A DNA stretch of 64,000 nt from Escherichia phage vB_EcoM_PTE-Eco09. The stretch is from sequence record PQ306574.1; one strand, written 5' to 3'. The notes beneath the pieces are model-generated. The model had not been told where the DNA came from. It saw nothing but the letters and a program-made list of their open reading frames with translations, and did not search any database. Both the position numbers and the translations under genes were made by a program. This document shows, one piece after another, positions 26,048-54,422 of this stretch (position 1 is its first letter; each line of letters begins with the position of its first letter).

Positions 26048-26079
26048 ATCGAAACGAAATACACTTTAAGGAGAATCAA

Positions 26080-26229: not shown

Positions 26230-26237
26230 AAAAGCAG

Positions 26238-26272
26238 TTGACAGCATATCACGGGAGTAGTAAGATACTCCC
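26238..26272 (+). promoter_or_regulatory. PeSL-like element
   Basis: TTGACA-N17-TAAGAT; inverted repeat GGGAGTA/TACTCCC. Confidence 0.55.
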
Positions 26273-26299
26273 ATCCCAAAACAACTAAGGAGTATCAAG

Positions 26300-28315: not shown

Positions 28316-28359
28316 TAATAAGCGGGGCTAGTTCCCCGCCTTTTGTCGTTGGGGGTAAT

Positions 28360-28683: not shown

Positions 28684-28799
28684 GCATAGAAATATTGCCT
28701 ACACAAGAGCAGATAAGCAATTTTAATCTGGTTGATTATCTGTGGATAGGTGCAAGCATTATTATCCTGATGGTGTTTTCAATTTTCGTGATACACTGG

Positions 28800-35999: not shown

Positions 36000-36278
36000 A
36001 TGTTCAAAGTAGGTGATAAGTTTATTCTTAGTCGTGATATTCTCCCTAATCTGAAAGGTTGTATCATCAATCCTAGTAAAAATTCATGGTTTTATCTGTT
36101 TATCGACGACAAACTGAATGTACGCGCAGAATATAAAGAAGGTCTTCGTACTGGTCTAGGTTTCTTTCACGATCATGATCATAGCCATTGGCTAAACGGT
36201 GGATTCGAAGCAACGGTGCTAGCGGTTGATGTGACTTACACGAACATCATAGAAAAATATCAAAAAATTATTTTATAA
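36000..36278 (+). CDS. hypothetical protein, paralog family A member 3
   Basis: FYLFIDDKLNVRAEY…HDHDHSHW…VLAVDV. Confidence 0.45.
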   Translation: MFKVGDKFILSRDILPNLKGCIINPSKNSWFYLFIDDKLNVRAEYKEGLRTGLGFFHDHDHSHWLNGGFEATVLAVDVTYTNIIEKYQKIIL

Positions 36279-36284
36279 AAAGTA

Positions 36285-36318
36285 TTGACACCGGATCGGG
36301 GATATAGCATAATATCCC
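36285..36318 (+). promoter_or_regulatory. PeSL-like element
   Basis: TTGACA-N17-CATAAT; inverted repeat GGGGATAT/ATATCCCC around -10; ATCGAAACGAGATACACTTTC leader. Confidence 0.55.
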
Positions 36319-36359
36319 CATCGAAACGAGATACACTTTCTAACTAGGAGAATCAAATT

Positions 36360-36647
36360 ATGGCATACATTACTATCACTCTGAAAGTTAACAAATTCGC
36401 TCACGCTGCACACGAAACCGATAATGCAATCCGTAACAACAAGTTCGCACGTCTGGTACGCGATGCGGTAGCTAAAGAGTTCAACTTCAAATTTGCAGAT
36501 GGTAAAGTTATCACTAAATGGACTCATGACGGCGAAACTAAAGTAGAACTTGCTGATAACTTCGCAAATCAGGAATATGCACACCGTCGCATTAATGAAA
36601 TTATCAGCGATGAACTCTACTACGGTGTACAGGAAGGACTGTTTTAA
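36360..36647 (+). CDS. hypothetical protein (95 aa); paralog of ORF 34168-34479
   Basis: ATG ORF behind PeSL; shared AKEFN block. Confidence 0.5.
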   Translation: MAYITITLKVNKFAHAAHETDNAIRNNKFARLVRDAVAKEFNFKFADGKVITKWTHDGETKVELADNFANQEYAHRRINEIISDELYYGVQEGLF

Positions 36648-36652
36648 TATAC

Positions 36653-36676
36653 GGGGCGTTAAGCCCCACCCCTTTT
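36653..36676 (+). terminator. terminator-like hairpin
   Basis: GGGGC-GTTAA-GCCCC then CCCCTTTT; same hairpin sequence recurs at 40433. Confidence 0.5.
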
Positions 36677-36700
36677 CATCCAACTATTGAGGATAATACT

Positions 36701-37009
36701 ATGAAAGATAATATCTTTGAATTTACCCGCGAAAATCTCCCAATGTTCCGAAAGTCTCTGCTTAAACTAGAGAACAGTAATTATGATGTATATTTTTACA
36801 TCACCGAAGACCTAGAGATCCTTTACGCAGATTATCCAGGTCCGATCCGTACCTTCGAAGAAGCATCGCAGTATAAAAATGTTCACGGTCATGAGCACTG
36901 GTTACGAGAAAACCCAGGTCGCAAGAAAGCACGCGTTAAAGTGATTGCGATTGACGTAACACCAGCATACGCCGACCGGATTGCACTGAATGATTATTTG
37001 TCTAAATGA
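36701..37009 (+). CDS. hypothetical protein, paralog family A member 4
   Basis: YDVYFYITEDLEILYADY…HGHEHW…VIAIDV. Confidence 0.5.
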   Translation: MKDNIFEFTRENLPMFRKSLLKLENSNYDVYFYITEDLEILYADYPGPIRTFEEASQYKNVHGHEHWLRENPGRKKARVKVIAIDVTPAYADRIALNDYLSK

Positions 37010-37016
37010 TTTTATT

Positions 37017-37042
37017 AGCCGACCTTAGTGTCGGCTTTTTTA
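37017..37042 (+). terminator. rho-independent terminator
   Basis: AGCCGAC-CTTAGT-GTCGGCT followed by TTTTTT. Confidence 0.6.
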
Positions 37043-37065
37043 TTGCATAAAATTTTAAAAAAGTT

Positions 37066-37094
37066 GTTGACACCAGATCACGCCTATAGCATAA
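37066..37094 (+). promoter_or_regulatory. early promoter with conserved leader
   Basis: TTGACA-N17-CATAAT-ACACCC-ATCGAAACGAGATACCACTTAGGAGAATCAAACAATG. Confidence 0.5.
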
Positions 37095-37135
37095 TACACC
37101 CATCGAAACGAGATACCACTTAGGAGAATCAAACA

Positions 37136-37405
37136 ATGGCGCTGACTAAAACCACTACCAACTTTGCAAAACGTCACGGCTTCGACCTTGAAATCAATAG
37201 CTTTAACGATTACACCCTTCTGTGTGTATATGAAATCGAAAATGATTGCGAGTGGATGTTCAGCTATCGCGTAAACGAAGACGGATCTTTCACTTGGAAC
37301 GGAAATATCTATCTTGCACAGGAAGTAAAAGAAGAACTACCGGCGACTATCAAAGATGAGAAGCATTTACGTCAAGTTTTAAAATTTATTTCTGAAAATA
37401 TCTAA
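37136..37405 (+). CDS. hypothetical protein (89 aa)
   Basis: ATG ORF behind promoter cassette. Confidence 0.5.
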   Translation: MALTKTTTNFAKRHGFDLEINSFNDYTLLCVYEIENDCEWMFSYRVNEDGSFTWNGNIYLAQEVKEELPATIKDEKHLRQVLKFISENI

Positions 37406-37413
37406 AAAAGTTG

Positions 37414-37442
37414 TTGACACCAAAGTAAGAACATAGCATAAT
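37414..37442 (+). promoter_or_regulatory. early promoter with conserved leader
   Basis: TTGACA-N17-CATAAT-ACACAC-ATACCGAAACGA. Confidence 0.5.
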
Positions 37443-37475
37443 ACACACATACCGAAACGAACTGGAGAATCAAAA

Positions 37476-37757
37476 ATGAAATTCATCAAAGCAACCGAAA
37501 TCCTGAAAAACAAAGAAGCATACATCGGAAACATCGTTGGTATGAACATTCGCGGCGCTGGTAGCCAGTGGACCAAACTGGTTGATGTTAAAGCTAAAGG
37601 CGATAAAATTGAGTTCACTGTAAAAATGCTTACTCATAACGCACATATGGGTATCAAGACAAAAACGATGGCAGCAGATAAAAGCATCAACTATCAGGAT
37701 CTGGGCGATTGGCTGAACTGGTGCAAAATACACAACATCGAAACTAATCACGAATAA
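37476..37757 (+). CDS. hypothetical protein (93 aa)
   Basis: ATG ORF behind promoter cassette. Confidence 0.5.
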   Translation: MKFIKATEILKNKEAYIGNIVGMNIRGAGSQWTKLVDVKAKGDKIEFTVKMLTHNAHMGIKTKTMAADKSINYQDLGDWLNWCKIHNIETNHE

Positions 37758-39292: not shown

Positions 39293-39621
39293 TGAGATTG
39301 TTTAAGTATTCGCTAACGTCAAATTACGATAAACAAGGTCATTGCATCCGTTGCCCTGATTGTCATAGCCATAACATCGAAAGCAAGATCACCGATCATA
39401 TTGATGGACTTTGGTCGCCAGCAAGTGAAATAGAATACTATTGCGCTGATTGTGGAATTGTAGTAGCATATTGGGCATACGGATCATATGATCCATACTT
39501 CCAGATGGGAGAGCGTTCAATCCCTGCGCTTATCTGGAGAATTAAGAACAATATCCGGCATTCATGGGATGAGTTCTTAAAAGATATTGATTTACGTGAT
39601 GACCCATTCAGGAGACTATAA
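39289..39621 (+). CDS. zinc-ribbon protein (110 aa)
   Basis: CIRCPDC … CADCG four-cysteine arrangement; overlapping start with upstream stop. Confidence 0.45.
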   Translation: MMRLFKYSLTSNYDKQGHCIRCPDCHSHNIESKITDHIDGLWSPASEIEYYCADCGIVVAYWAYGSYDPYFQMGERSIPALIWRIKNNIRHSWDEFLKDIDLRDDPFRRL

Positions 39622-39622
39622 C

Positions 39623-40141
39623 ATGAACCGTTTAACGCCTAAACGCCGTTACTATACCAATACTAAAAACTTTGTCATCTCTGTTTATGATGCATGGTTA
39701 GAAGATGGCTATATCAACATGAACCCAGATTATCAGCGTCCTTTAGTATGGGACACCGAAAACAAACGTATGTTTATTGAAAACCTGATTAATGATTTTC
39801 CGGTTGGTGCTATCGCAATGGCTAAGATTGATGATGGCTCTCGCTATGAGATCGAAATCGTGGACGGTAAACAGCGTTTAAACGCAATATTCTCCTTTAT
39901 GAAGGATGAGTTTAGCATTGCTTGTAATGATGATTCTATGTTGTATTACAGTGATTTTACGCCAGCAGAAAAGCGACGTTTCCGAAATCTCGGACTACCC
40001 GCGATCATGATGGAAGAGAGCACACGAGAAGACCGATTAGAGTATTTCTACAAAACAAACTTTTTCGGTGTACCTCAATCGGAAGAACATCGCCAGCATG
40101 TGATTGCATTATTGCAAGATGAACAATTAAAAAATAACTAA
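39623..40141 (+). CDS. DUF262 / ParB-like domain protein (about 172 aa) without nuclease domain
   Basis: DYQRPLVW and EIVDGKQRLNAI resemble DUF262 signatures (FQRxxVW, DGQQR) of GmrSD-type N-terminal domains; start at ATG after GGAG. Confidence 0.45.
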   Translation: MNRLTPKRRYYTNTKNFVISVYDAWLEDGYINMNPDYQRPLVWDTENKRMFIENLINDFPVGAIAMAKIDDGSRYEIEIVDGKQRLNAIFSFMKDEFSIACNDDSMLYYSDFTPAEKRRFRNLGLPAIMMEESTREDRLEYFYKTNFFGVPQSEEHRQHVIALLQDEQLKNN

Positions 40142-40493: not shown

Positions 40494-42545
40494 ATGTTTA
40501 ACTTAGAAATCGACGATCTAATGATTGAATCTTTCGAGAAATGGCTGTTGACGGAAGAGGAAGAAAACTTTGGCAGTATTGCTCCTGTACAGTGCTTAAA
40601 GCCTAAGCAGAATCCTAAACAGCTTTTTGCAGTACAGACACGCGATAAAGATGTGATTGTCCGTCTTTGCAACTTCACCAACAAAACACCTAAAATCATT
40701 CGTATGGGTGACAAGACCGCACATGTTGTACTGTGCGAAATGAACAAAAGCGGTCGTATTGTACAGCTTAAAAATGGTCTAGGCGATAACCCGATTGCAG
40801 TTATGTCAAGTGCTTTTGATGTGGTTATGGAAACAGCCCGTAAAGCGCAATTAGACGCTGTTATGTTCCGTTTTAACGTATCCCGCATGAAAGGTAAGAC
40901 CGAACTGGTTAAGCGCGTTATAGAGCGTTTGGTGCGTCGTACACCGAAGTTTGAAGTATTCCAGCAGGAAGTAATGACCAGCAAAAAGATCGCTTTAGTT
41001 GTTGTCAAGCGTCGCGGTATGGCGATTGATAAGATTAAAGGGATTAAACTTGATGATTCCTTGTTCACTAAAGTAGAAAGTGATTTAGGTGATCGCTGGG
41101 TATCTAAGGCTACTGGTGAATCTCTGACTAAAGATGAGGCATATGCGGCTAGTCTTGTGTCAGAAGAAGAACGAAACGCGGAAGCGGAACAACGCGTAGC
41201 GGCTAAATCTCGTTTGACTAAAGAAGAAATGCTGAAAACTCAAGCGACCTATAACAGCGACTATGTGAATCATCCAGAAAAAATTAATCTTAAACCGGAA
41301 GAAGATATCACCGAAGCCGAACCTAAGAAACAGTTTAATACTCTGATTGATCGTCAAGCCTTAGAACGTTCAACCGCCCGTTCTCTGAATGACTGGACAA
41401 GTGATATTATCACTCGCTATGGTTTCATGCGTACTATTTTTGAAAGCGAAGCCGATGCAAAATACGCAGTAAGCGAACTGGTAAAAGTTCAGGATCAATA
41501 TGATCCGTTGTCTGCGGAAGTTATCGCAGCATCAATCAAACGCTTAAAAGAAATCATGAGCGAGGAAGTATTCGAAAACAAGATCACCGCCCGGGCAATG
41601 GATCGAGTAGACCAGTCTATGCCAGCAGATGTAAAAGCTGAAATGCTGCGTAGTCATATCACCCAGATTAAAACCGATGCCCTACGTAATGTTGCGTCCG
41701 GTATGTTTGAAGCAATTGCTAGCAACATGGGTGAAATGATGGCAGATATTGATCTTGATCTGCCAGGCGCGGAAGGTTTTGTGTTGAGCGAATATGCCGA
41801 TGCAGCATACATCAATATGAACAACTTCCTAACTGATCGTAAGCTGGAAGAGTTTGAAGGCATCGCAGATCCAGAAGAATTGGTCAAGATGTGCGATGCA
41901 CTGGATAATGCCTTCTCCAACTATGGCGTTAAACTTGATCCGGGTACTATTCTGTATCGTGGTATGGACTTCCGGTCGCAAATGTGGGAAACTGCACGTA
42001 AGCAAAAAGCGTTTTACTTTAAAAACTATGTGAGCACTTCCCTTGCACCTAACATTTTTGGCGGCTGGAATGCAAACGTGGCTAGTGCCGTTGCTGGTGT
42101 TGATTCTATGGCTGGCTCTCGCGGTGAAGGTGGCGCTAATGTTGCTTTCTCCATTGCTGGCGCGGAAAACATCCCTGTATTGCCAGTAGGTAACAAAGCA
42201 TTTGCTTACAAAGAATGCGAGATTTTACTTCCTCGCGGTGTTGTGTTATCCTTTGATACGGTAACTCGTGCTACGGCATCGACGGATTCACAAGAAACTT
42301 ATTACATTGAGGCACATATTATGAACAAAAATGAACTGGCAGCATTACAAGAATCTGGCGAGATGATCGCGGACGGTGATGCATTCATCCGTGAAGGTGT
42401 TATTAAACCTGCTTCTGACCTGTCTTTCTCCAGCTTTATTACCGAAGCTAAAACCGAACGTAAGAAAGCAGATAAGGCAACTCTACGTCAGCTTATCGCT
42501 GATCTGGTATCTGTAGACGCAATGCCAGATAAATTTAAAATGTAA
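40494..42545 (+). CDS. alt: ADP-ribosyltransferase Alt
   Basis: 683 aa, essentially the T4 Alt length; shared blocks (LFTKVES-GD…TKDEA-AAS); R-S-E ART motifs (LYRG, STS, ECEILLPRG). Confidence 0.8.
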   Translation: MFNLEIDDLMIESFEKWLLTEEEENFGSIAPVQCLKPKQNPKQLFAVQTRDKDVIVRLCNFTNKTPKIIRMGDKTAHVVLCEMNKSGRIVQLKNGLGDNPIAVMSSAFDVVMETARKAQLDAVMFRFNVSRMKGKTELVKRVIERLVRRTPKFEVFQQEVMTSKKIALVVVKRRGMAIDKIKGIKLDDSLFTKVESDLGDRWVSKATGESLTKDEAYAASLVSEEERNAEAEQRVAAKSRLTKEEMLKTQATYNSDYVNHPEKINLKPEEDITEAEPKKQFNTLIDRQALERSTARSLNDWTSDIITRYGFMRTIFESEADAKYAVSELVKVQDQYDPLSAEVIAASIKRLKEIMSEEVFENKITARAMDRVDQSMPADVKAEMLRSHITQIKTDALRNVASGMFEAIASNMGEMMADIDLDLPGAEGFVLSEYADAAYINMNNFLTDRKLEEFEGIADPEELVKMCDALDNAFSNYGVKLDPGTILYRGMDFRSQMWETARKQKAFYFKNYVSTSLAPNIFGGWNANVASAVAGVDSMAGSRGEGGANVAFSIAGAENIPVLPVGNKAFAYKECEILLPRGVVLSFDTVTRATASTDSQETYYIEAHIMNKNELAALQESGEMIADGDAFIREGVIKPASDLSFSSFITEAKTERKKADKATLRQLIADLVSVDAMPDKFKM

Positions 42546-42561
42546 TTTTAAGAAATAATGG

Positions 42562-42602
42562 TTGACTCAAACGGGGACTAGTTTTATACTAGCCCCGTTT
42601 TC
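42562..42602 (+). promoter_or_regulatory. PeSL-like element that also looks like a terminator for alt
   Basis: TTGACT-N17-TATACT; inverted repeat AACGGGGACTAGT/ACTAGCCCCGTT enclosing -10, followed by TTTT. Confidence 0.5.
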
Positions 42603-42622
42603 TGTTATATGGGAGGCTTAAA

Positions 42623-43447
42623 ATGTTCAAGAAATTACAGGATTTTCGTATTTCAGAAGAATCACGCGAATCAATGATGGAACGTATGGATAATTACATC
42701 GAAACATATGACATTGAGGGGATTAATGGTTACATGATCACTGAGATGATCAGTGATCAGATTAACTTTGATGATTATGTGAAGGTTATCCGCTTCCTTG
42801 AGCGCGAGACACAAGATTATGGATTTGTCAAGAAAATCATTAATGTGATGTATGAAGTACACTCCGAAGAATTTGGAGATAATGTATTCAAACATTACAA
42901 ACATAACAACATAACCCCAGCAGAATATAATGCAATCTGTGATTATGTGTCTGAACAATACGAATGGGTAAATGGTGCTCTCTTAGGGGAAGAAGACATG
43001 ACCGATGAGATATCAGAGATTGTCGATTTGATGGATTGCGTCATGGATAAAACCGAAAAGTTAAACGGTACTCTTTATCGAGGTCAACATCTTGACATTC
43101 AGACAATAGAGCGTATCATTGAAGATAAGGAGTTTACCTTTAAAAACTTTGTATCTACCAGCATGACACCGATCATATTTGGAGGATGGCTATCAAACAG
43201 CACTAGCCTTTATTGTGAGAATCGATATGAATCAATGACCGGAAAGATGCAACATTCTTGTAATGTATCATGGGTAATTGACGTAAAAGATCATAAAGGT
43301 TTTGTTGTTGGGTCAATTGCATGGAACCCTTGCGAATGTGAAGTAATTTTACCGCGAGGGACTTGCGTCAAGGTAAACGACGTAGTAGAATCTTTCGGCG
43401 ATGAGAATCGTAGACAATTTACAATTTTCGGTGAGGTGACTAAATGA
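42623..43447 (+). CDS. second ADP-ribosyltransferase (Alt/Mod-like paralog, 274 aa)
   Basis: R-S-E motifs: TLYRGQ, FKNFVSTSMTP (compare Alt FKNYVSTSLAP), ECEVILPRG. Confidence 0.6.
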   Translation: MFKKLQDFRISEESRESMMERMDNYIETYDIEGINGYMITEMISDQINFDDYVKVIRFLERETQDYGFVKKIINVMYEVHSEEFGDNVFKHYKHNNITPAEYNAICDYVSEQYEWVNGALLGEEDMTDEISEIVDLMDCVMDKTEKLNGTLYRGQHLDIQTIERIIEDKEFTFKNFVSTSMTPIIFGGWLSNSTSLYCENRYESMTGKMQHSCNVSWVIDVKDHKGFVVGSIAWNPCECEVILPRGTCVKVNDVVESFGDENRRQFTIFGEVTK

Positions 43448-43956
43448 AAATGATTAAACTGATTGGTCTTGCGGCTTTGGTTGCTATGCTTAATGGGTGC
43501 GCTGTACATGAACTGGCACTGGCATCTAAGAATACACACGAGTTTGTACGGTCATGTGAACGATGGCAGAAAGAGTCACGTTTTCCATTTAATAGCGTTG
43601 AAGATTGCGTGATTGACTACCTTGAAAAGAAAGACGCCTCATTACAGCGTTTAGGTCGTCAACCGGAATCAGCAGAACAGATCGCAAAGATTAAGGCAGA
43701 TAAAGAAGCAGAGAAGAAACGCATTTACGAATATTATTATGGTCGTGAAAATTCAATTGAAGAAATGAATCGCAAAGCAATGGAAGATGCCGACCGTCGT
43801 AGACAATTTGGAGTATGTGTAATCGGGACGGAAGCAGCATATCAAGATGATCTTAATAGTGCGTATGATAACGGAGACTACGAAAAAGTTAAAATGCTGC
43901 GGTCTAAAGAATACCGTTATAAGCTACGTAAACAATGCGAACAGTTATTAAAATAA
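43444..43956 (+). CDS. predicted lipoprotein (170 aa)
   Basis: Signal peptide with lipobox (LVAMLNGC); start overlaps ART stop (ATGA). Confidence 0.55.
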   Translation: MKMIKLIGLAALVAMLNGCAVHELALASKNTHEFVRSCERWQKESRFPFNSVEDCVIDYLEKKDASLQRLGRQPESAEQIAKIKADKEAEKKRIYEYYYGRENSIEEMNRKAMEDADRRRQFGVCVIGTEAAYQDDLNSAYDNGDYEKVKMLRSKEYRYKLRKQCEQLLK

Positions 43957-43983
43957 TAAAAGGGGGTATAATCCCCCTTTACA
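43957..43983. terminator. bidirectional terminator between convergent genes
   Basis: AAAAGGGGG-TATAAT-CCCCCTTT. Confidence 0.55.
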
Positions 43984-43984
43984 T

Positions 43985-44914
43985 TTAGAATAACCTAGTA
44001 ATAGAGTTGACTATCCTACCACCAACACCCTGTAATCTTGACAATGCACTACCAGCAAAGGTCAACGAACTTTTTTTACCCTCACCAACAGTATTTTGAA
44101 TAAGATTTATTGCCTTATCCTCAATCCATTCTCGCGCGGCTTGCTCTCCTACTGCACCAGTTTGCATAGAACGATATGCGAAAGTAACATCGAATGTTGT
44201 GATCTCGTTGTTATTTTCATAACTCAATTCAGGAGAACTAACACCAACTGGAATACATCCACTAAACATCATAATTGTATGTGGTACACCCATTCGGTTA
44301 TGTAAGTTAACCTGAATATCGGCTTCAACGTCAACAGGAAGCGCACGAAGCCCTGTAACGGGGTCTTCTACTGAGTTAACCCAATCCTGCATCGCACGGT
44401 AATTTGATGCGCTAGCGTCCATTCTAAAGCTCAACACAATCGGATCAAAATCACGTCCGGTAATTCGAATGTTTGGCGCATTGTGGTTACGGTCCATTTC
44501 ATAATTCAATCTGTTTTCTGGAACCTTAACAGCATACACCAGAAGACCGCTTGTCTTATATGCCATATTGAACCAATCCATGACATATGTACCAACTTCA
44601 AATTGCCCCAAAAGAGATTGAACTACTCGTGATGACATTGCACCCAACAAATATTTTTTAACACCGGACGAGCTAACAGCTTTACGCACACCACCAATAG
44701 CAAGATTTGCTACCGCGTCAGTATAATCCCCACGAGTAATACCAAAATAATCATTTAGTTTACCTGGTATAATATCATATACAGCACCACCAAAATTTTC
44801 TAGAATTTGCTGCGTCTTGCTACTAGGAACGGTGGCAAACGCCACCGAAAATAGATTAGAACGCTGGAAGTCTAGATTAGCGGCTTGTTCATTGAAATCG
44901 TTTAAATCAAACAT
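43985..44914 (-). CDS. 54: baseplate tail-tube initiator gp54
   Basis: 309 aa; assignment by size and synteny (first of six-gene baseplate block next to alt). Confidence 0.65.
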   Translation of the reverse strand: MFDLNDFNEQAANLDFQRSNLFSVAFATVPSSKTQQILENFGGAVYDIIPGKLNDYFGITRGDYTDAVANLAIGGVRKAVSSSGVKKYLLGAMSSRVVQSLLGQFEVGTYVMDWFNMAYKTSGLLVYAVKVPENRLNYEMDRNHNAPNIRITGRDFDPIVLSFRMDASASNYRAMQDWVNSVEDPVTGLRALPVDVEADIQVNLHNRMGVPHTIMMFSGCIPVGVSSPELSYENNNEITTFDVTFAYRSMQTGAVGEQAAREWIEDKAINLIQNTVGEGKKSSLTFAGSALSRLQGVGGRIVNSITRLF

Positions 44915-45972
44915 TATAATTGACTCCCAAATACAGTACCACGGGAAAGAGTAAGAATCTCCCTGAACGATACTTCCAAAACAAAAGTGCTCGGTAAATT
45001 AGGAGATATTGCAAGCCCACCAAATTTACCATCTGGGGATTTATCAAGTCTTACGTTAGAAATTTGCGCTGGTCCGAAAACATCACTTCTTCCCTCATAT
45101 TCAGAACGTTTTCCAAAGTTTGATATCATCCATATAGTAGGATTCGATACAGTGGTTACGTTTGTCAAAAAGTCAGTTATTCCCTCAAATACAGTACCCG
45201 TTGTATCAGCACCTTCTGGAACCGTTTTAGAAAGAATTGTCTTTTTATACCATGCGTCAACTTCCGCTTTTAATTGTTTTGCGGTACTGGAAATACCACT
45301 AGACCCATAAGATAACTCTACAAACGTCTCATAGATAATCAGGATATTTCGTAGGTCTTCAATACTGCGTGGGGTTAAGTTCCAAACATAGTTTTTAGTT
45401 CTAGGATCTGCCCCAGCATACATGCTACGAGCGGTATTATAGATTTGCTCGTTTTTATCCGCAAGATAACCACCCGTCAAACTTTCCAACCCACCAAATA
45501 CTGCGGTCGATGCCATAGTAGATAATGCGCCAGAAATAGTGCCACCGCCACGCGTAACGAGAGATTCACCAACATCATTAAACTTGTGACTTACCGCATC
45601 AACATCTGATTGACTACGAGGAAGTAGAATATTAGCAACGGCCTCACGTTCAAATCCAACTCCCCTATTACTCGTATATTCTGCCTTACCACCATTAGAA
45701 ATAGATAGACCAAACCCCTTGATCGTGTTTCCTTTATTTCTGAAATCTCGTAGAGAGTCGGTAACACGACTTTTATAATCATAGGCAGTAAACAACAAGC
45801 CGTTATTATAAAGGTCATTTATGTATATACCAGATGAATCATTGCCGCTAGCTCGTTCAGATGGAAATTGAGCGGTTAAAGTTGACTTGTCTTGTTTTTG
45901 AGTAAAACCAGCAGACGCTTTGACGCCTTTGTTAAAGGCGTCTTTAGCATCATCCAAAATTTGAATTTTCAT
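44914..45972 (-). CDS. 48: baseplate tail-tube cap gp48
   Basis: 352 aa; synteny and size. Confidence 0.65.
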   Translation of the reverse strand: MKIQILDDAKDAFNKGVKASAGFTQKQDKSTLTAQFPSERASGNDSSGIYINDLYNNGLLFTAYDYKSRVTDSLRDFRNKGNTIKGFGLSISNGGKAEYTSNRGVGFEREAVANILLPRSQSDVDAVSHKFNDVGESLVTRGGGTISGALSTMASTAVFGGLESLTGGYLADKNEQIYNTARSMYAGADPRTKNYVWNLTPRSIEDLRNILIIYETFVELSYGSSGISSTAKQLKAEVDAWYKKTILSKTVPEGADTTGTVFEGITDFLTNVTTVSNPTIWMISNFGKRSEYEGRSDVFGPAQISNVRLDKSPDGKFGGLAISPNLPSTFVLEVSFREILTLSRGTVFGSQL

Positions 45973-45973
45973 A

Positions 45974-47659
45974 TTAAACTATTCCTTTCTGTAATAGACC
46001 GGGAGAAGGTGTACTAGTTTGAGGTCTGGTTATCTGAACCGTTCTATTATTGTTATAGATCTGCGTGTTTGCAACGTTGGCAGTATTAGTAACAGTATTA
46101 TCGTTTCTAATATTTTGTAGCTGACCTTGTTCTATAGACTTAGCTTGTTTTGCTGTATCGGTTTCATCCGGTGGCGGTGGAGTAACAGCAGGTGCGTTCT
46201 TAGTAATACGAATCTTGTCGTATTGGTCAAGAAGTTCTTTAATTTTCTGTCTGTCTGTAGAAAGAAGGTCTGGATTGTCCAACACTTTACGCTGTTCATT
46301 AACATCATTATCAAGCGCAGCTAATTTATCTGGAAGAGTACCCGGTTTTACGGTCTTTAACATAGAGATATTTCGAACCATGTCACCCTCAACGTCAATA
46401 GTGATATTGCTACTCTTTCTATAGGCATCATCACTAACAGATTTTAGCTCTTTCATCCTAGTAACTTCATATTTTTCCTGTTCAGTTAAAATAGGCTCTA
46501 CTTGCATACTTGCCATACTGCTATATTGCTGATTAGCAAGTTTTGCTTGAGTCTGCATACCTTTCTGAATTTCTTCTTCTTTCTTCATACGGGCGTACAA
46601 CTCTTTTTCTCGTTCATCCATTTTAACACCGCTACGCGCTTGTGCTTGTTTTAAAGCACCATATTCCAGAGTATCAGCCAACGAACCCATACCAGGAATA
46701 GAACGAAGTACCGACGCAAGACCTTTAGTTATTATTCTATCAAGCTGAAAAAACGCATCAACCAACACATCAGCCAAACCACTAACAAGCTCGGTTACAA
46801 GTTCACCATATTCTTTATTTTCCCAATAGTTTTGTATACTTTCAACGGAAGTTAAAACTTTATCTAATGTAGAACCCCAATTTCCTGCCTTCCTCATAAA
46901 CTCGCCAAAGTTCTCGTCAAACTGCTTACTCCAGTATCTAAAATGAATCATTAGAGTATCAACAGCAACAACGATCCCCAGAAGAATAGCTCCCCATTTG
47001 ACAACCTCAAACATTGCGGTCACCGTCATTTTAAACAGCATAGAGAATATCTTGTTGGATACACCAACAGTCTCTTTAAATCCACCGCGAACCGCTTTGA
47101 GTAGCAGTTGCATATTATTGTCACGGTCGCTATTCTTATCTTTCTTTTTCTTTTTATTATCGTCTTTAGGCTTCTTAGGTAACGTAGGGTAGTTATCGTT
47201 ATTTTGTTGTTCCGGTACACTCGGCAAAACTGGTTGCGGTGATGGCATAGTTTGTTCCGGCTGTTTATCATCCTTGATGGCATTTTCGATTGCATCGAGA
47301 CCACTGGTGATCTTAGAAACGACGCTGAATCGACGTTCCATCATGACACCAAAACCGCGTAATTTCTCATTCATTTGAGAAGAAAAGCTATTCAACTTCT
47401 GCAATTCTTCATAGGTTTTTTGAGTATTGCCAGCGGTAGATTGTGTGTTTTCTGCCGTTAATTCGTTGGCTGCGGTGTTATCCTCCACCGCTCCAATAAC
47501 TTCATTAGATTTTTGTTCTACTGTCTCCGCCACCAATTCACTTGCAGCTTGAAGATTATCAATAGAATCAAGTTTATCTAATTTGTTAAGTTTATCAATC
47601 GGGTTTTCTTCCGCTTCCTTGCGCATCCCGCGAAATGATGTTAATGCGTCATTATTCAT
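45974..47659 (-). CDS. 29: baseplate hub subunit gp29
   Basis: 561 aa; internal TM segment and low-complexity Lys-rich stretch; synteny and size. Confidence 0.65.
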   Translation of the reverse strand: MNNDALTSFRGMRKEAEENPIDKLNKLDKLDSIDNLQAASELVAETVEQKSNEVIGAVEDNTAANELTAENTQSTAGNTQKTYEELQKLNSFSSQMNEKLRGFGVMMERRFSVVSKITSGLDAIENAIKDDKQPEQTMPSPQPVLPSVPEQQNNDNYPTLPKKPKDDNKKKKKDKNSDRDNNMQLLLKAVRGGFKETVGVSNKIFSMLFKMTVTAMFEVVKWGAILLGIVVAVDTLMIHFRYWSKQFDENFGEFMRKAGNWGSTLDKVLTSVESIQNYWENKEYGELVTELVSGLADVLVDAFFQLDRIITKGLASVLRSIPGMGSLADTLEYGALKQAQARSGVKMDEREKELYARMKKEEEIQKGMQTQAKLANQQYSSMASMQVEPILTEQEKYEVTRMKELKSVSDDAYRKSSNITIDVEGDMVRNISMLKTVKPGTLPDKLAALDNDVNEQRKVLDNPDLLSTDRQKIKELLDQYDKIRITKNAPAVTPPPPDETDTAKQAKSIEQGQLQNIRNDNTVTNTANVANTQIYNNNRTVQITRPQTSTPSPGLLQKGIV

Positions 47660-48177
47660 GATAGGAGATCCAATATGTTAATGCCACCATAGATAGTACC
47701 TTCTGGAGTATCTAAGGCAACGGTTTTTCTTAATCCTGTAGCCCAATTCATAATAAACGCTGGGAATTTATGAAAGTCTACACTAGGATCGTGATAGTGA
47801 TTGCTTAGGAAATTTGCATCATCATGTGTATATTCAGAAGAGAGCATAGGAGGCGTGAACTTGAATTTCTCGCCATTAAATTCAAACTCCGATTCTGTAC
47901 AGATATAAACATCATCCAATCGCAAACCATCTTTTTCTTCTAGGCATTTGCCATTAAAAGAGCATAAGTGAAGCATAACATATTCTGCTTCGGCTGCATT
48001 TAGTCCTGGGTGAATGGAATCAAGTAGAATTTTTAAAGTATCTTCACAGCTACGAACATCTTTTAATAATCTGTGCTGTTTGATCCCCATTTTAGGGATC
48101 TTGATATGTTTCCCGTTAACGGTAATATTTTTAACAGGAACAACAAATTTTAGAGATGGTTTAGTATCAGTCATCAT
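47656..48177 (-). CDS. 28: baseplate hub distal subunit gp28
   Basis: 173 aa; synteny and size. Confidence 0.6.
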   Translation of the reverse strand: MMTDTKPSLKFVVPVKNITVNGKHIKIPKMGIKQHRLLKDVRSCEDTLKILLDSIHPGLNAAEAEYVMLHLCSFNGKCLEEKDGLRLDDVYICTESEFEFNGEKFKFTPPMLSSEYTHDDANFLSNHYHDPSVDFHKFPAFIMNWATGLRKTVALDTPEGTIYGGINILDLLS

Positions 48178-49283
48178 ATTTTACCTTCAAATTGTACATC
48201 TTTCAAAATCTCACTATGACTAAACATGTGAATATGTGTTAATGATTGTTCTCGACAAATTTCATGAACAACTTCATCGACAATAAAATCGGTGCGAATT
48301 TGCTGTTTAGCATCAAAGAATCTTAGCTTTTGTGCTGGACGTAGAGAGAAATTACCATGACACACCGCGCTGGCATAGGAATCAAATTGTCCAAAAGTTG
48401 CCAGTTTAGAACCTTCAAGATACGCGTTTTTATATGTCAAATTACCATAAGCGCCACCATGAGCAAAATGAGCTATGTTATCACCATTACCCACTACAAT
48501 CTTGTTATACTGCTTCGTGATGAAATCAATTGTTGTGTAAGTGACATTAGCGAATGAGTTTTTTGTTACCGCATTACTCTTAGTATCCCACTCAAAGTTA
48601 AACACCATCAAATATTCGCTCATATCCATGAATTGTCCTGTTAGGGTAGGCTCGGTGACGATAGCAGGAATTGGATCACCCTGCATCAGTAGTTTATGAT
48701 CGGTGATCTTGATCCCGTCAAAGTCCTCCCAACAATAAACGAACGATTCGTTGTCTACACTCTGACCATGCGTTCTCACATATTCAAAATAATCGTTAAC
48801 GGTGTTCACCCACGGACACTTAGGAATGAATACGTTTACTCCCGTAATGGCAGGTTTCCACAATGGAACATTTTTATAGATCGCGTCTATCATACTGGTG
48901 ATGTTATTCACCGCGTTAGTGTCGGTAGCGCGAGAAAACTTTAGATTCAGCGTTTCATGGTAGCTCTTTAACTGGAAGGTTATTATATTATCGGCCTTAG
49001 AGTCAACCGTCACATTACTATGCGCGATACCATATATCCGGTTGAATACTTGTTCAGTATTAGCCGTTGATAATGAAATTTGTATAATCTCTGTTCCTGC
49101 TAATTTCGTATGAAGCGCCTTAGAATCATATATTTGTAACAATCCTTCATTGACACCACGAAGAGAATCACGTAATGTCATTGTAATGAAGGTAGCACCC
49201 AATTCAACAAATCTATTTTCCAAAAATGCTTCATAATCTTGATATAGCTTTATAGAGACGTTAGGAAATCCGGGTCTTTGCAT
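48174..49283 (-). CDS. 27: baseplate hub subunit gp27
   Basis: 369 aa; synteny and size. Confidence 0.65.
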   Translation of the reverse strand: MQRPGFPNVSIKLYQDYEAFLENRFVELGATFITMTLRDSLRGVNEGLLQIYDSKALHTKLAGTEIIQISLSTANTEQVFNRIYGIAHSNVTVDSKADNIITFQLKSYHETLNLKFSRATDTNAVNNITSMIDAIYKNVPLWKPAITGVNVFIPKCPWVNTVNDYFEYVRTHGQSVDNESFVYCWEDFDGIKITDHKLLMQGDPIPAIVTEPTLTGQFMDMSEYLMVFNFEWDTKSNAVTKNSFANVTYTTIDFITKQYNKIVVGNGDNIAHFAHGGAYGNLTYKNAYLEGSKLATFGQFDSYASAVCHGNFSLRPAQKLRFFDAKQQIRTDFIVDEVVHEICREQSLTHIHMFSHSEILKDVQFEGKI

Positions 49284-50034
49284 TATTTGCCTCTTTAACG
49301 TCTTTTTCTACTAATGTTAGGGCGATATTTCTTTCTACTGGCAACATATCCATTAGATCACCAAACGAATAACTACTTTTCACAAGCAGATGATTAATCC
49401 TATAAAAAGTAAAAAGCTCATCTGGATTAAGGATTAGTTTATATAACCCCAACAAATCGGTATATCTTAATTCGTGTGTATCACAGCATTTGATCTTCTG
49501 CTCAATCAAAATGGTGTGCATTTTCTTTACTATGGTTTCAAATTCTGAGAAGGATATCGAATCTATAACCTGATCGCGCACTTCCTCCGGCAATTCGGTC
49601 CATGCATACTCATTATCACCATCAGAAACGCTCTCAATCGCTTCTAGAAACGTTTTTGCGTAGTCGGTTGATGGTTTCACATACTTAAACTTAATTTTAA
49701 GTCCAGCCGTTTCTAGGACGATTGGTTGCAGTGCCGGAACAGCAAGGTTTAACAATATTCGCTTTTCCTTACCGCAGGTCGGACACTTAAAAGAAAGTGG
49801 TAATTTTGTTTTACCTATTGAGCTAGTAAAAACGTTCAGGAAAATATATTCTCGGAATATCGGGTCCACATCAGGGTATAATTCCTCCAACAATTCATCT
49901 AGAATCAATTGTTCCTCCGATGGATTGCCCTTCATATCAGCCGAAACTAAAAGAAAATCACGATAATCTTTTACAGTGAATGGCTTAAAACGTTTAGCCC
50001 CGCCATCTGGCATTTTAATTCGTATAACATTCAT
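49261..50034 (-). CDS. 51: baseplate hub assembly protein gp51
   Basis: 257 aa; synteny and size. Confidence 0.6.
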   Translation of the reverse strand: MNVIRIKMPDGGAKRFKPFTVKDYRDFLLVSADMKGNPSEEQLILDELLEELYPDVDPIFREYIFLNVFTSSIGKTKLPLSFKCPTCGKEKRILLNLAVPALQPIVLETAGLKIKFKYVKPSTDYAKTFLEAIESVSDGDNEYAWTELPEEVRDQVIDSISFSEFETIVKKMHTILIEQKIKCCDTHELRYTDLLGLYKLILNPDELFTFYRINHLLVKSSYSFGDLMDMLPVERNIALTLVEKDVKEANNAKTRIS

Positions 50035-50054
50035 AATACAATCCCCCTTTCGGG

Positions 50055-50062
50055 TATTTATA
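50055..50062 (-). promoter_or_regulatory. T4-type late promoter (TATAAATA) for gene 51 block
   Basis: TATAAATA on minus strand about 21 nt upstream of gene 51 ATG, in divergent region with gene 26. Confidence 0.5.
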
Positions 50063-50103
50063 AAATACTAAATAATTTCTATGTATCATAAGAGGTGTAT
50101 ACT

Positions 50104-50733
50104 ATGCAACATATTTTCAAGATTAAGTTAGGTGATAAGACGATCACCGCTAGAGCATTCACCTATGAAGAATTTCAGAAACTAGTAGAATATAAGAGCA
50201 CCGGACGTCTTAAGGAAGCGGTATTAGACATTATCAATGATTGCACAGGAATTAACGCATTAGAGTTAGAGAAATGCGAGGCTGAATACCTATTCCTTAT
50301 GCTATGGTGTCATAGCCTAGCAAAAGAAAATTTCAAATCTACGTGGGTGTGTGGAGTATGTAACAAAGAGAAAGAATATAATCTTAATGTTGAACGGACA
50401 CAGATCCCAGACACAGAACCATATCTGTTAGATTTAGGAGGGGTTAAAATCAAATTCCGTCCTCCGCGTTTTACAGAAGATGACGATATCATGCAGATGG
50501 TAATTGCTTGTATTGATTATATTGTCATTGATAATCAGGAATTTGATATTCATGACCTAAACGAACAAGACTTCGACACCATACTAAGTATGTTGACAAC
50601 AGAACACGTAGAGACTATCATCGATGAATTGACAGGTCCACAAATCACACTGGCAGTACCGATCAAGTGTGATTGCGGGGAGTCCGGTATTCATTCGATC
50701 AGGGGTCTTAATGAATTTCTGACGATCCTTTGA
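50104..50733 (+). CDS. 26: baseplate hub subunit gp26
   Basis: About 209 aa; synteny and size; start at ATG. Confidence 0.6.
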   Translation: MQHIFKIKLGDKTITARAFTYEEFQKLVEYKSTGRLKEAVLDIINDCTGINALELEKCEAEYLFLMLWCHSLAKENFKSTWVCGVCNKEKEYNLNVERTQIPDTEPYLLDLGGVKIKFRPPRFTEDDDIMQMVIACIDYIVIDNQEFDIHDLNEQDFDTILSMLTTEHVETIIDELTGPQITLAVPIKCDCGESGIHSIRGLNEFLTIL

Positions 50734-50740
50734 GGTAGTT

Positions 50741-51127
50741 ATGACAACAGTTAACCAGATGTACACTGACTTAAACCTAGAGTTTAAGCTAGCATGGAAC
50801 AACGATATTAAAAAGAACACAGGGATTAAAGCGATTAAAGATTCCATATTGCTGATCATAACCACGGCTAAGGGATCTCGCCCGTTTGATCCGAACTTTG
50901 GATGCGATCTAAACCGCGCACTATTCGAAAACATCAACCCATTGACTGTGGATACCTTGTCTAAGAACATAACCGAATCGATAAGAAACTACGAACCACG
51001 AGTAAAAAGGCTTGACGTAGACGTCACTCCGCAGTATGATGAGAACTCGATTATAGTAACGGTTTATTTTTCTGTTATAGACAATCCAGATGAGTTAGAA
51101 CAACTTAGAGTTAGATTGTCTAAATGA
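50741..51127 (+). CDS. 25: baseplate wedge protein gp25 (GPW family)
   Basis: 128 aa; GPW/gp25-like pattern; T4 gp25 size. Confidence 0.75.
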   Translation: MTTVNQMYTDLNLEFKLAWNNDIKKNTGIKAIKDSILLIITTAKGSRPFDPNFGCDLNRALFENINPLTVDTLSKNITESIRNYEPRVKRLDVDVTPQYDENSIIVTVYFSVIDNPDELEQLRVRLSK

Positions 51128-51142
51128 TTGAGGTGTTTTATT

Positions 51143-51550
51143 ATGGATCTGAATGAACTAAAAGACCAGCTTGACGCTGACGTCAAGATCGACGCAACAA
51201 AGCTACAATGGGAAGCACTTAATAACCCTGTAGTTTACTCTAAATGGCTGCGTGTGTATAGTGAAGCAAAGCGCGAGATCATTGCGCTGGAAGCAAAGAA
51301 AAAGAAAGCCACAAAAAATAAACTTGACTTTTACACTAATCGTAGTGATGAATGGTGTAGAGTGGAGTACGCCACATCAGAATTGAAAGTTGTGATGGCG
51401 GCAGATGATGATATCCTACCATTGGATACAAAAATTGCTTATTATCAAATGGTTATGGATTTTGCTGGCAAGGCTCTTGATATAATCAAATCACGAGGAT
51501 TCGCGATCAAGAATGCTATAGAGTTGCGTATGCTTGAGTCTGGAAAGTAA
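51143..51550 (+). CDS. uvsY: recombination mediator UvsY
   Basis: About 135 aa helical protein right after gene 25 as in T4; start at ATG MDLNELK. Confidence 0.65.
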   Translation: MDLNELKDQLDADVKIDATKLQWEALNNPVVYSKWLRVYSEAKREIIALEAKKKKATKNKLDFYTNRSDEWCRVEYATSELKVVMAADDDILPLDTKIAYYQMVMDFAGKALDIIKSRGFAIKNAIELRMLESGK

Positions 51551-51580
51551 GACACTAAATATATGCAGGAGGAAGGATTT

Positions 51581-51754
51581 ATGACTTGTATTTGTGCTGT
51601 ATGTAAACAGCCAATCGAAATGGCGTTGGCTGTTAAAATCGAAAATCATGTTGTTCATCCGGGATATTGCGAAGAATTTGCAAGCCGGAATCATTTGAGC
51701 GAATCAAGTGCAGAAGAACAAGAACAACTGGTAGAAACTACTTTGATTCTCTAA
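51581..51754 (+). CDS. small Cys-containing protein (57 aa), position of T4 uvsY.-1/-2
   Basis: SD GGAGGAAGG then ATG; MTCICAVCKQP…. Confidence 0.45.
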   Translation: MTCICAVCKQPIEMALAVKIENHVVHPGYCEEFASRNHLSESSAEEQEQLVETTLIL

Positions 51755-51792
51755 AGGAATTTGTTGATAACCGATTTTAATTGGTTTATTTC

Positions 51793-51817
51793 GCCCCATC
51801 AATGATGGGGCTTTTTT
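51793..51817 (+). terminator. rho-independent terminator
   Basis: CCCCATC-AAT-GATGGGG followed by TTTTTT. Confidence 0.6.
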
Positions 51818-51832
51818 GTATCCGATGATTTA

Positions 51833-52069
51833 TTAAAAATCCTCTTCCGGCTCCTCTTCCGGCTCATTTTCACTCTCTAACTGTTTTCTTCGACCTGCGA
51901 TTGCATCACGAATAGAGATATCATCTGACGGTTTGAGATCGGTCTCTTTCTTGCGCTTTTCATAATATTTTTCAAGCTCGTCCAAACCTTCCATAGTATT
52001 ACAAGAATAGATTTTATTCATGAAACCATCAATAACCGCCTCGGCTAAGAATCGTTTAAAACTAATCAT
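51833..52069 (-). CDS. small acidic protein in the position of T4 UvsW.1
   Basis: 78 aa ORF directly downstream of uvsW on the same strand. Confidence 0.5.
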   Translation of the reverse strand: MISFKRFLAEAVIDGFMNKIYSCNTMEGLDELEKYYEKRKKETDLKPSDDISIRDAIAGRRKQLESENEPEEEPEEDF

Positions 52070-52111
52070 TTTTAATCTCCGTAAAAATAAGGGGCATACA
52101 GCCCCTATTTA

Positions 52112-53668: not shown

Positions 53669-54350
53669 CGCGTTTCACGACCTTATTAACTACCCCGTTG
53701 TTATACCACTTACTACCAGTATGAAAATCGTTAAGCCTTGCTACACGCTCGGCGAGAGCACCGGACTCACGATCCTTTTGGACTTGTCTTAGACACATTT
53801 CCCTGTTAGCGGCTTTGCGTTCCTCCGTCCATTCTATATGGTCCCACCCAACATGTAAATTACCCTTGACGAATCCGTCAGGTGGAGTTTCTCCATCTCG
53901 AACTCGTATAGATTTAACACCGTCGTTGTACCATGTGCTGCCGGAAACACTATCTCGCATACCTACTATTGCTTTTTTTAGTTTTCCAGTTTTCATATCA
54001 CGTTCTACGCGCTCTTTGGCAGAAGAAGACATTTTAGCGCGTACAGAGTCTGAGTATACCTGGTCTCCGTCATAACGACCGCCAGTAACTACATTATAAT
54101 AATTGGGATCTTTTACAATGTCAACAGTGACAAGTTCTTTTTCGTATAGGTAAGCATCTTGCTCGGTATCAAACATTTTTAATATGCGCTTCTCGAAGTT
54201 CTCAATGCCATATTTTTCAAATGCAGCACGAAGAAGGTCACCAGACCCCATATATCCATCATGCATATTGTTAGTAGAATGTTTACCTATATACAATTTG
54301 CCGTTTACAAGATTCTTTATCTCATAAACATAATGAAATCTTTTAGCCAT
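53619..54350 (-). CDS. GIY-YIG homing endonuclease (Seg-like) with two C-terminal DNA-binding repeats
   Basis: N-terminal YVYEIKNLVNGKLYIGKH; two ~30-aa repeats (WYNDGV…RDGETPPDGFVKG); 3' end overlaps uvsW start. Confidence 0.7.
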   Translation of the reverse strand: MAKRFHYVYEIKNLVNGKLYIGKHSTNNMHDGYMGSGDLLRAAFEKYGIENFEKRILKMFDTEQDAYLYEKELVTVDIVKDPNYYNVVTGGRYDGDQVYSDSVRAKMSSSAKERVERDMKTGKLKKAIVGMRDSVSGSTWYNDGVKSIRVRDGETPPDGFVKGNLHVGWDHIEWTEERKAANREMCLRQVQKDRESGALAERVARLNDFHTGSKWYNNGVVNKVVKRGDTPPDGFVLGKLVKR

Positions 54351-54422
54351 AGTAAAAATCTCCGTATGCAATAAATACAGTATACAAATATTTATACAAA
54401 CACCCCCAATCAGGAGAATAAC

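Follow-up and report, generated by a model that had tools for sequence, protein, structure and literature searches.

The window analysed here, a stretch of 64,000 nucleotides from Escherichia phage vB_EcoM_PTE-Eco09 (record PQ306574.1), carries at positions 42,562 to 43,956 two coupled genes downstream of alt: a 274-amino-acid open reading frame (ORF) for a second ADP-ribosyltransferase (ART), here called ART2, and a 170-amino-acid ORF for a predicted lipoprotein. All three genes lie on the plus strand and are followed by the convergent genes gp54, gp48 and gp29 on the minus strand (Table 1). With a probability of about 0.5, the two genes are read as an early cassette that is conserved among RB49-like T4-type phages.

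The interval 42400-44100 is matched by 58 phage records, all of them Krischvirus (RB49-like T4-type coliphages), the top match being AV108 with 99.1% identity over the full length. The RB49 counterparts are RB49p184 (alt), RB49p183 (ART2, labelled in its record 'ADP-ribosyltransferase, similar to C-terminal part of T4 Alt protein') and RB49p182, a hypothetical protein at the lipoprotein position. The window Alt is 26% identical to T4 Alt over 695 amino acids (E 3e-57).

Table 1. Features of the ART2-lipoprotein locus, in window coordinates
Feature	Position	Strand	Basis
alt, full-length Alt-like ADP-ribosyltransferase, 683 amino acids	40494..42545	+	PHROG 802, E 9e-180; Pfam PF03496, E 2.5e-9
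PeSL-like promoter/terminator spacer, 77 nucleotides	42546..42622	+	promoter scan, fold, published anatomy
ART2, 274-amino-acid R-S-E mono-ADP-ribosyltransferase (predicted), short Alt paralogue	42623..43447	+	Pfam, PHROG, alignment, AlphaFold2 model
Lipoprotein signal peptide (codons 1-18) and Cys19 codon (43498-43500)	43444..43500	+	five-phage nucleotide alignment
Predicted prolipoprotein gene, 170 amino acids, PHROG 16112, RB49p182 position	43444..43956	+	ORF, profile, alignment, AlphaFold2 model
GC-rich hairpin AAAGGGGGTATAATCCCCCTTT at the cassette's 3' edge, where the lipoprotein and gp54 genes converge	43959..43980	both	terminator scan
gp54, baseplate tail-tube initiator, late gene bounding the cassette	43985..44914	-	AV108 and RB49 annotation

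The second ADP-ribosyltransferase and its spacer

ART2 is matched over residues 82-266 by Pfam PF03496 (ADPrib_exo_Tox; E 2.9e-16, 59.8 bits against a cut-off of 23.4) and end to end by PHROG 15144, a Krischvirus-specific family labelled 'ADP-ribosyltransferase' (E 3e-197). On the Alt profile PHROG 802 it aligns to positions 329-602 of 674 only, lacking the N-terminal ~330 residues and the last ~75 of Alt, and it is therefore not an Alt orthologue, a place that belongs to the 683-amino-acid gene upstream. In BLASTP it is 37% identical to the window Alt over 109 amino acids (E 1e-16), and it is 31% identical to residues 413-593 of T4 Alt (E 2e-20). R153 (in LYRG), S178-T179-S180 and E238-C-E240 stand in register with the motifs of both Alt proteins and are invariant across lineages that are just 30-45% identical (alignments A1, A5 and A6), in agreement with the initial annotation, which had described a paralogue keeping the Arg, Ser-Thr-Ser and Glu-x-Glu motifs. 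The catalytic residues are likewise present when the ARTs are aligned with T4 Alt, ModA and ModB, the latter two aligning through their ExE to E238-x-E240. Membership of ART2 in the ModA/ModB family was rejected, as identity is 13-16% and only the ExE region aligns; tblastn of T4 ModA against RB49 and the window returned nothing, and T4 ModB finds RB49p014, not ART2.

The AlphaFold2 model of ART2 (predicted local distance difference test score, pLDDT, 81.9; predicted template-modelling score, pTM, 0.80) gives Vis, C3bot, C3bot2, Certhrax and CDTa as the top Foldseek matches in the PDB (E ~1e-10), and the ratio of nonsynonymous to synonymous substitution rates (dN/dS) is 0.03-0.05. Collectively, fold, profile, invariant motifs and low dN/dS indicate a real, constrained and probably active R-S-E ART. 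ART2 shows no signal peptide. Taking into account that it lacks the N-terminal ~330 residues of Alt and has its own sigma-70 promoter, it is probably made early after infection, like ModA and ModB, instead of being packaged and injected like Alt. ART2 can thus be viewed as a putative functional analogue of ModA/ModB and, RB49 having a ModB homologue but no detectable ModA, it may be the RB49-group stand-in for ModA.

The promoter upstream of ART2 consists of a -35 box TTGACT (42562-42567), a 17-nucleotide spacer and a -10 box TATACT (42585-42590), scoring 10/12 in the promoter scan. Its -10 box is overlapped by a hairpin at 42569-42600 with 13 base pairs, one bulged A and a 5-nucleotide loop, and an 80-nucleotide fold at this element reaches -24.3 kcal/mol (z = -3.9). 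On the 3' side of the hairpin follow the T-rich run TTTTCTGTT, the Shine-Dalgarno (SD) sequence GGGAGG (42611-42616) and the ART2 ATG, and the AT-rich stretch TAATTTTAAGAAATAAT upstream of the -35 box holds the alt stop codon TAA. In the published anatomy, a PeSL comprises an upstream stop in an AT-rich stretch, the -35 and -10 boxes, a stem-loop, an SD sequence and a start codon, the commonest layouts having the stem-loop between the boxes or in overlap with the -10 (Arbiol 2010). The near-consensus sigma-70 boxes, the AT-rich upstream stretch with its stop codon and the stable overlapping stem-loop all conform to this description, so that the PeSL-like element which had been proposed in front of the ART-lipoprotein pair stands, on anatomy. 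The upstream alt would be the transcript that the hairpin ends, and a terminator is annotated in the alt-ART2 spacer of the Makalu_003 record. The distant loci L010 and L015 carry TTGACA-17-TATACT with a GGGG...CCCC stem upstream of ART2; L012 has a variant of the element and L014 a degenerate version.

When the 83-nucleotide element was searched with blastn-short against the window and RB49, only the self-match was returned, indicating that it is not a member of the repeated PeSL family. The classic PeSLs of the window, of the form TTGACAGGGGATC..GATCCCCTATACT/TATAAT, lie at 34094, 34488, 38017 and 40149 (+) and have the stem-loop placed between -35 and -10; they bear no similarity to the element at 42562. 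Intergenic repeats of 80-110 bp also occur near 25720-26310 and 36260-37480, matching multiple RB49 sites at 72-94%. The classic PeSLs and the repeats are all on the plus strand, which is the early direction in that part of the window.

The lipoprotein gene and the exchange of its mature part

The ART2 stop codon (TGA, 43445-43447) overlaps the lipoprotein start codon (ATG, 43444-43446) in an ATGA arrangement, as had been noted at the outset, and GAGGTG lies 7 nucleotides upstream of this ATG. The protein begins with MKMIKLIGLAALVAMLNGC, followed by Ala20; K2 and K5 precede the 11-residue hydrophobic core LIGLAALVAML and Cys19, and the charged n-region and the uncharged h-region, ending within 15-25 residues, are as expected of a signal peptidase II substrate. 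Cys19 is invariant in 18/18 aligned family members, as are four mature cysteines (38, 55, 125 and 165) and a GDY motif in the aligned family. The residue at +2 is A, V, T or S in the family, never Asp. In E. coli, the absence of Asp at +2 leads to sorting to the outer membrane. A lipoprotein-signal pattern applied to the real genes of the window and of the whole RB49 genome matched only this gene and that of the o-spanin, with two further matches on the antisense strand of gp34.

The AlphaFold2 model of the lipoprotein is all-helical, with seven helices (pLDDT 82.7, pTM 0.48), and the mature protein (residues 19-170) is probably stapled by two disulfides, for which the helix neighbourhood in the model suggests the pairing 38-55 and 125-165. 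Sequence and structure searches yielded no relative outside its own family: Pfam returned nothing, PHROG 16112 is a family of unknown function, NCBIfam gave weak matches only, chiefly with the signal peptides of other lipoprotein families, the PDB sequence profile gave nothing below E 0.14, and Foldseek found nothing in the PDB below E 0.9 and only the protein's own family in BFVD. One earlier record reads 'putative lipoprotein' and the UniProt homologue from KFS-EC 'Lipoprotein'; the label 'outer membrane protein assembly factor' on P0005 in nr could not be reproduced. T4 alt.-3 was rejected as a counterpart, having neither a signal peptide nor similarity. Word-seeded searching and an exhaustive hidden Markov model search of 1.84 billion representatives were applied, the latter placing the family in 10 clusters, all in RB49-like contexts. 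Within allele groups the dN/dS is 0.12-0.28, about five-fold more relaxed than for ART2, which indicates a constrained coding gene; no omega >1, and hence no positive selection, was detected within these groups.

The lipoprotein differs sharply in its conservation from its surroundings. Between the window and RB49, amino-acid identity is 99% for Alt, 99% for ART2, 32% for the mature part of the lipoprotein, 87% for gp54 and 77% for gp48; between G37-3 and RB49 the lipoprotein is 37% identical, and ART2, gp54 and gp48 are each 100% identical. Across Krischvirus, ART2 is 97-100% identical and the lipoprotein 31-51% between allele groups, which are represented by the window (A), JK32 (B) and RB49 (C). 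A five-phage nucleotide alignment is near-identical through the Cys19-Ala20 codons and then diverges abruptly. Relative to the window, the signal-peptide module is 83-100% identical and the hypervariable module of residues 20-124 only 16-31%, and residues 125-170 are 72-76% identical to group B and 33% to group C. In G37-3 a second switch of type occurs near the 3' end of the gene, with the RB49-type terminator hairpin. The breakpoints thus follow directly on the Cys19-Ala20 codons and fall inside or beyond the 3' part. The hairpin downstream of the gene is terminator-like on both strands in the terminator scan, has allele-specific variants in nucleotide alignment A4, and coincides with terminators annotated in the G37-3 and Makalu_003 records. 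The lipoprotein gene therefore behaves as a recombination cassette whose anchors are the signal-peptide coding region and the downstream hairpin. Allele distances inside the genus are as large as those between lineages with ART2 proteins of only 30-45% identity, so that the diversity reflects old alleles exchanged by recombination rather than fast point substitution.

The divergence is not confined to the lipoprotein gene. The window and RB49 are 93-98% identical except at 43476-53614, where no nucleotide match exists for the lipoprotein gene and identity falls to 79% in gp54-gp48 and to 74% in the hub genes together with uvsY/uvsW. This haplotype block of ~10 kb comprises the lipoprotein gene, gp54, gp48, gp29, gp28, gp27, gp51, gp26, gp25, uvsY and part of uvsW; its flanks are 96-98% identical to RB49, and its left edge falls inside the signal-peptide coding region. 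The block is common only to AV108 (97.9%), Whisky (95.7%) and JK32 (94.3%), which are phages with lipoproteins of groups A or B. E26, PHB13, G37-3 and 011D4, on the other hand, have a mosaic window-type lipoprotein on an RB49-type hub (gp54, gp48), suggesting that the association between lipoprotein and hub is a physical linkage broken by recombination. No covariation of the lipoprotein allele was found with the gp37 tip, gp38, gp5, gp54/gp48 or ART2.

A 250-amino-acid ORF for a SegE-like GIY-YIG homing endonuclease (53619-54371, -; Pfam PF19835, E 1.3e-8) marks the exact right edge of the divergent block, within a stretch that RB49 lacks. Seg-type endonucleases bring about co-conversion of flanking markers, and the SegE-like enzyme could have helped the 10-kb block to spread.

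Several other features of the window were recorded. The distal tail fibre gene gp37 (1693-4635, -) has a tip 88-91% identical to its closest relatives (AV108, 89.9%), unlike the intervals 42400-44100 and 44000-53600, where AV108 is ~98-99% identical; several Krischvirus phages have a gp37 tip of an entirely different type. The divergence of the tip indicates that the window phage is a mosaic relative of AV108 and not AV108 itself. In a stretch unmatched in RB49, directly upstream of a 388-amino-acid ORF (23766-24932), lies a 215-amino-acid ORF (23118-23765, +) with a NUMOD3 motif (E 2.7e-9) of the sort that homing endonucleases typically have. The early region also encodes two proteins with nuclease or defence-related domains: one of 184 amino acids (39587-40141, +) with a GmrSD_N/DUF262-type domain (E 7e-20), and one of 419 amino acids (16001-17260, +) with four CapR-homology stretches and a treble-clef zinc-finger match, part of which falls in a stretch poorly matched in RB49.

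The gene pair and the possible roles of the lipoprotein

The ART2-lipoprotein pair is present in all 58 Krischvirus records, with both genes already annotated, and in all 7 of the more distant metagenomic lineages with a readable context (L010/L011, L012/L013, L014, L015, L016 and L022/L023). In these distant contexts a 264-282-amino-acid PF03496 protein lies directly upstream of the lipoprotein gene, with an overlap or a gap of at most 12 nucleotides, and gp54 converges from downstream. Cluster P0052 was left out of this survey, and in contigs L024 and L025 the sequence stops just past the ART gene; the more distant ART P0061 (29% identical) has no lipoprotein adjoining it. This recurrence indicates that the pair is a conserved module of the RB49-like supergroup, and the view that the coupling is unusual, put forward when the locus was first described, overreaches in so far as the pairing is no oddity of this window. 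The coupling appears to amount to joint early expression from the end of an early unit rather than to a physical or toxin-immunity partnership, because ART2 has no signal peptide and the ART2 and lipoprotein alleles reassort freely.

The following sequence of events is proposed. The spacer hairpin and its T-run would stop transcripts running through alt, as their anatomy suggests, and the near-consensus sigma-70 promoter around the hairpin would start a new early transcript. From this, ART2 would be produced as a cytoplasmic R-S-E mono-ADP-ribosyltransferase, derived from the catalytic part of Alt by an old tandem duplication and presumably adding a third ART activity beside Alt and the ModB homologue. 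The lipoprotein would be translated by coupling through the ATGA overlap, and the prolipoprotein would then receive its lipid at Cys19 and be sorted to the outer membrane's inner leaflet, a destination expected because no family member has Asp at +2; a predicted all-helical periplasmic domain of ~150 residues would be left. Its mature part, and residues 20-124 especially, is the portion exchanged between otherwise near-identical phages.

As to what such a protein does, the leading proposal, a tentative one with the odds leaning against it, is that the lipoprotein modifies the infected cell's envelope as part of a conflict with other phages or with host envelope factors that vary, i.e., exclusion in the broad sense and not a receptor mask fitted to the adhesin of the phage itself. 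The combination of predicted early expression, predicted outer-membrane anchoring and fast swapping suggests a conflict with something variable beyond the adhesins of the phage itself, be it other phages or envelope and defence factors of the host. A bolder version, which is more doubtful still, makes the lipoprotein the founder of a new family of envelope-conflict proteins in virulent T4-type phages, helical, stapled by disulfides and anchored in the outer membrane, in which residues 20-124 would be an exchangeable specificity module, ancient alleles would be shuffled between co-circulating phages, and the coupling to an early ART would make one 'inside plus outside' takeover operon.

Several points weigh against the overall interpretation. 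The timing of the promoter, the activity of the ART and the lipidation and location of the lipoprotein are all predictions. The element at 42562 is PeSL-like by anatomy only and shares no sequence with the repeated PeSLs. The window lipobox, LNGC, fails the strict pattern [LVI][ASTVI][GAS]C because of the Asn at -2. Without a relative in fold or sequence, there is no functional handle on the lipoprotein. Its strict pairing with ART2 across deep divergence could reflect a functional link that is discounted here. As for exclusion, the alleles do not covary with the gp37 tip, gp38 or gp5, and homologues of T4 Imm and Sp were not detectable in RB49 and the window by BLAST and annotation, which is weak evidence because these proteins are small and fast-evolving; nothing specific was found in the literature on lipoproteins or exclusion in the RB49 group. 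The superinfection-exclusion role suggested in the initial annotation is not favoured in its classical, receptor-blocking form, given the lack of covariation with the gp37 tip and gp38 and of any similarity to a known protein.

Among the alternatives, the one that survives best, though it is still unlikely, is that the lipoprotein targets a variable host component of the envelope or its defences, for instance by counteracting a defence in the periplasm or outer membrane, or that it tunes the timing of lysis. An allele diversity unmatched by the adhesins or gp5 of the phage itself leaves a variable external partner as a candidate, and the gene is predicted to be early. There is no positive evidence for this role, however; Pfam, NCBIfam and PHROGs show no anti-defence similarity, PADLOC not having been searched.

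A factor of the Llp/Cor type, which would plug the outer-membrane receptor of the phage, block superinfection and protect the progeny from cell debris, is slightly less probable. Like T5 Llp, the protein is a lipoprotein predicted to be early and sited in the outer membrane, and its phage is virulent; hypervariability, too, is frequent in conflict proteins. Known blockers, however, match the receptor-binding protein, whereas each lipoprotein group here holds both types of the gp38 adhesin (AV108 has the RB49 type, E26, 011D4 and PHB13 the other, and Whisky differs from JK32) and contains different gp37 tips. The gene, moreover, adjoins baseplate-hub genes and not an adhesin gene, and the protein has no homology to Llp or Cor, no Pfam family and, beyond its own family, no fold match in the PDB or BFVD.

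The same low chance is given to a Spackle-like periplasmic inhibitor acting on the tail tip of a superinfecting phage, either on the gp5 lysozyme or on hub, tube or tape-measure proteins. Krischvirus phages have no detectable sp and imm, the gene abuts the hub module gp54-gp48-gp29-gp28-gp27, the allele type is partly linked to the divergent 10-kb hub haplotype (AV108, Whisky, JK32), and the lipoprotein model is helical with predicted disulfides; T4 Sp is likewise said to be helical and disulfide-bearing. The gp5 proteins, however, are at least 98.8% identical in all Krischvirus and cannot drive alleles that are 30% identical. The pairing of a window-type lipoprotein with RB49-type gp54/gp48 in G37-3, E26, PHB13 and 011D4 makes the linkage look physical, and Foldseek against the PDB gave no match with E <0.9.

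It is improbable that ART2 and the lipoprotein are functional partners, the lipoprotein serving ART2 as immunity factor, regulator, substrate or export helper, and for that reason are never separated. Every lineage read has the two genes side by side and translationally coupled, including those whose ART2 proteins are only 30-45% identical, and the lipoprotein family has been found nowhere else. On the other side, ART2 without a signal peptide and an exported lipoprotein would occupy different compartments, and specific partners should covary, unless they make contact through conserved scaffold residues, whereas the alleles reassort.

More improbable again is that the window allele is not lipidated but secreted or membrane-tethered, LNGC not being a working lipobox. 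The Asn at -2 is off the published consensus, and LNGC is mentioned among unverified deviations from it (Kongari 2018). Against this, Cys19 is invariant, the same signal peptide occurs with the canonical LTGC in most relatives' alleles, and the LNGC form has recombined with three different mature parts in viable isolates (window, JK32 and Skers). Of the lipoprotein signal that had been called clear from the start, the n- and h-regions and the invariant Cys19 are upheld; the window lipobox departs from the consensus at -2, where most alleles are canonical.

An o-spanin or other lysis component, for which a phage lipoprotein with periplasmic cysteines and the listing of LNGC among unusual o-spanin lipoboxes (Kongari 2018) could be adduced, was rejected as hardly credible, since a regular spanin pair is present elsewhere, there is no adjacent type-II membrane protein (the neighbours being ART2 and gp54) and no C-terminal transmembrane segment, and the gene is preceded by an early promoter and lies a long way from those for lysis. 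The regular pair lies at 28309-29132 (+) and corresponds to RB49 pseT.3 and pseT.2; its i-spanin has an N-terminal transmembrane segment, and the o-spanin lipobox ALSSC lies ~65 residues inside a 150-amino-acid ORF, the Met at 28800 being its probable true start.

Phage therapy is a common reason for isolating Krischviruses, and isolates of this kind make up many of the matching records. If superinfection, cross-exclusion or the state of the host envelope is under the control of the lipoprotein, the allele carried would matter for how RB49-like phages act side by side in cocktails, and the gene would also point to the missing counterpart of T4 Imm/Sp. Should the proposal of a new envelope-conflict family hold, that family would fill the Imm/Sp gap of RB49-like phages by a mechanism unrelated to Llp, Cor, Sp and Imm. 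The ART half matters less, being a known Alt paralogue; it was published as such in 2006 and is annotated. What is new is the depth at which the pairing is conserved, the orphan lipoprotein family and a cassette-like hypervariability with defined recombination anchors.

Comparison with known systems

ART2 shares its R-S-E catalytic core with T4 Alt, a packaged NAD:arginine ADP-ribosyltransferase, but differs from it in probably not being packaged and in having a sigma-70 promoter of its own. Like the alt paralogues of T4, alt.-2 of RB14 and ORF187c/188c of 44RR, it lies immediately downstream of alt, and RB49ORF183c, 44RR ORF188c and T4 alt.-1/alt.-2 have been described as paralogous duplications of alt (Nolan 2006). 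Many T4 relatives have two Alt-like places. T4 keeps the opposite remnant from that of the RB49-like phages, which retain the catalytic part: its alt.-1 and alt.-2 (L004 5066-5451) match the N-terminal part of the RB49 and window Alt (E 1e-5 and 8e-10). In RB14, by contrast, the ORF annotated as alt.-2 (record FJ839692, 118734-119309) spans the ART domain. The N-terminal remnants of T4 and the ART-domain alt.-2 of RB14 together suggest that the duplication of alt is ancestral and that different halves survive in different lineages.

With T4 ModA and ModB, which are cytoplasmic and early, ART2 has in common its size class (200-274 amino acids) and its predicted early timing; it belongs to the Alt branch, unlike these two, which form the Mod branch. 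An RB49-like phage with Alt, ART2 and the ModB homologue RB49p014 thus has three ARTs, the same number as T4. The C3-like, Vis, Certhrax and CDTa toxins match the ART2 model in fold (Foldseek probability 1.0, template-modelling score up to 0.65 on the target) at 13-20% sequence identity; unlike these bacterial R-S-E toxins, ART2 starts with an additional helical region (1-145) and contains a loop modelled with low confidence at 187-205.

T5 Llp and the lambdoid Cor proteins, which block FhuA, are small early phage lipoproteins of the outer membrane, a location also predicted for the window lipoprotein. The latter, however, is about twice their size, is modelled as all-helical, and shows neither linkage nor covariation with receptor-binding proteins. 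T4 Sp and Imm are early envelope proteins of a T4-type phage, as is predicted here for the lipoprotein, with no homology between them. Since RB49-like phages have no detectable Imm or Sp, an analogue would be expected somewhere in their genomes; gp5, the target of Sp, is invariant in Krischvirus, in contrast to the hypervariable lipoprotein.

A parallel in organisation is provided by the PeSL cassettes of RB49 and phi1, which have the same order of parts as the element at 42562 and likewise stand in front of a plastic gene pair. The manner of exchange differs, as the published exchange runs from PeSL to PeSL, whereas the lipoprotein swap uses the signal-peptide coding sequence and the downstream terminator hairpin as its anchors, making this cassette a clean natural example of gene swapping.

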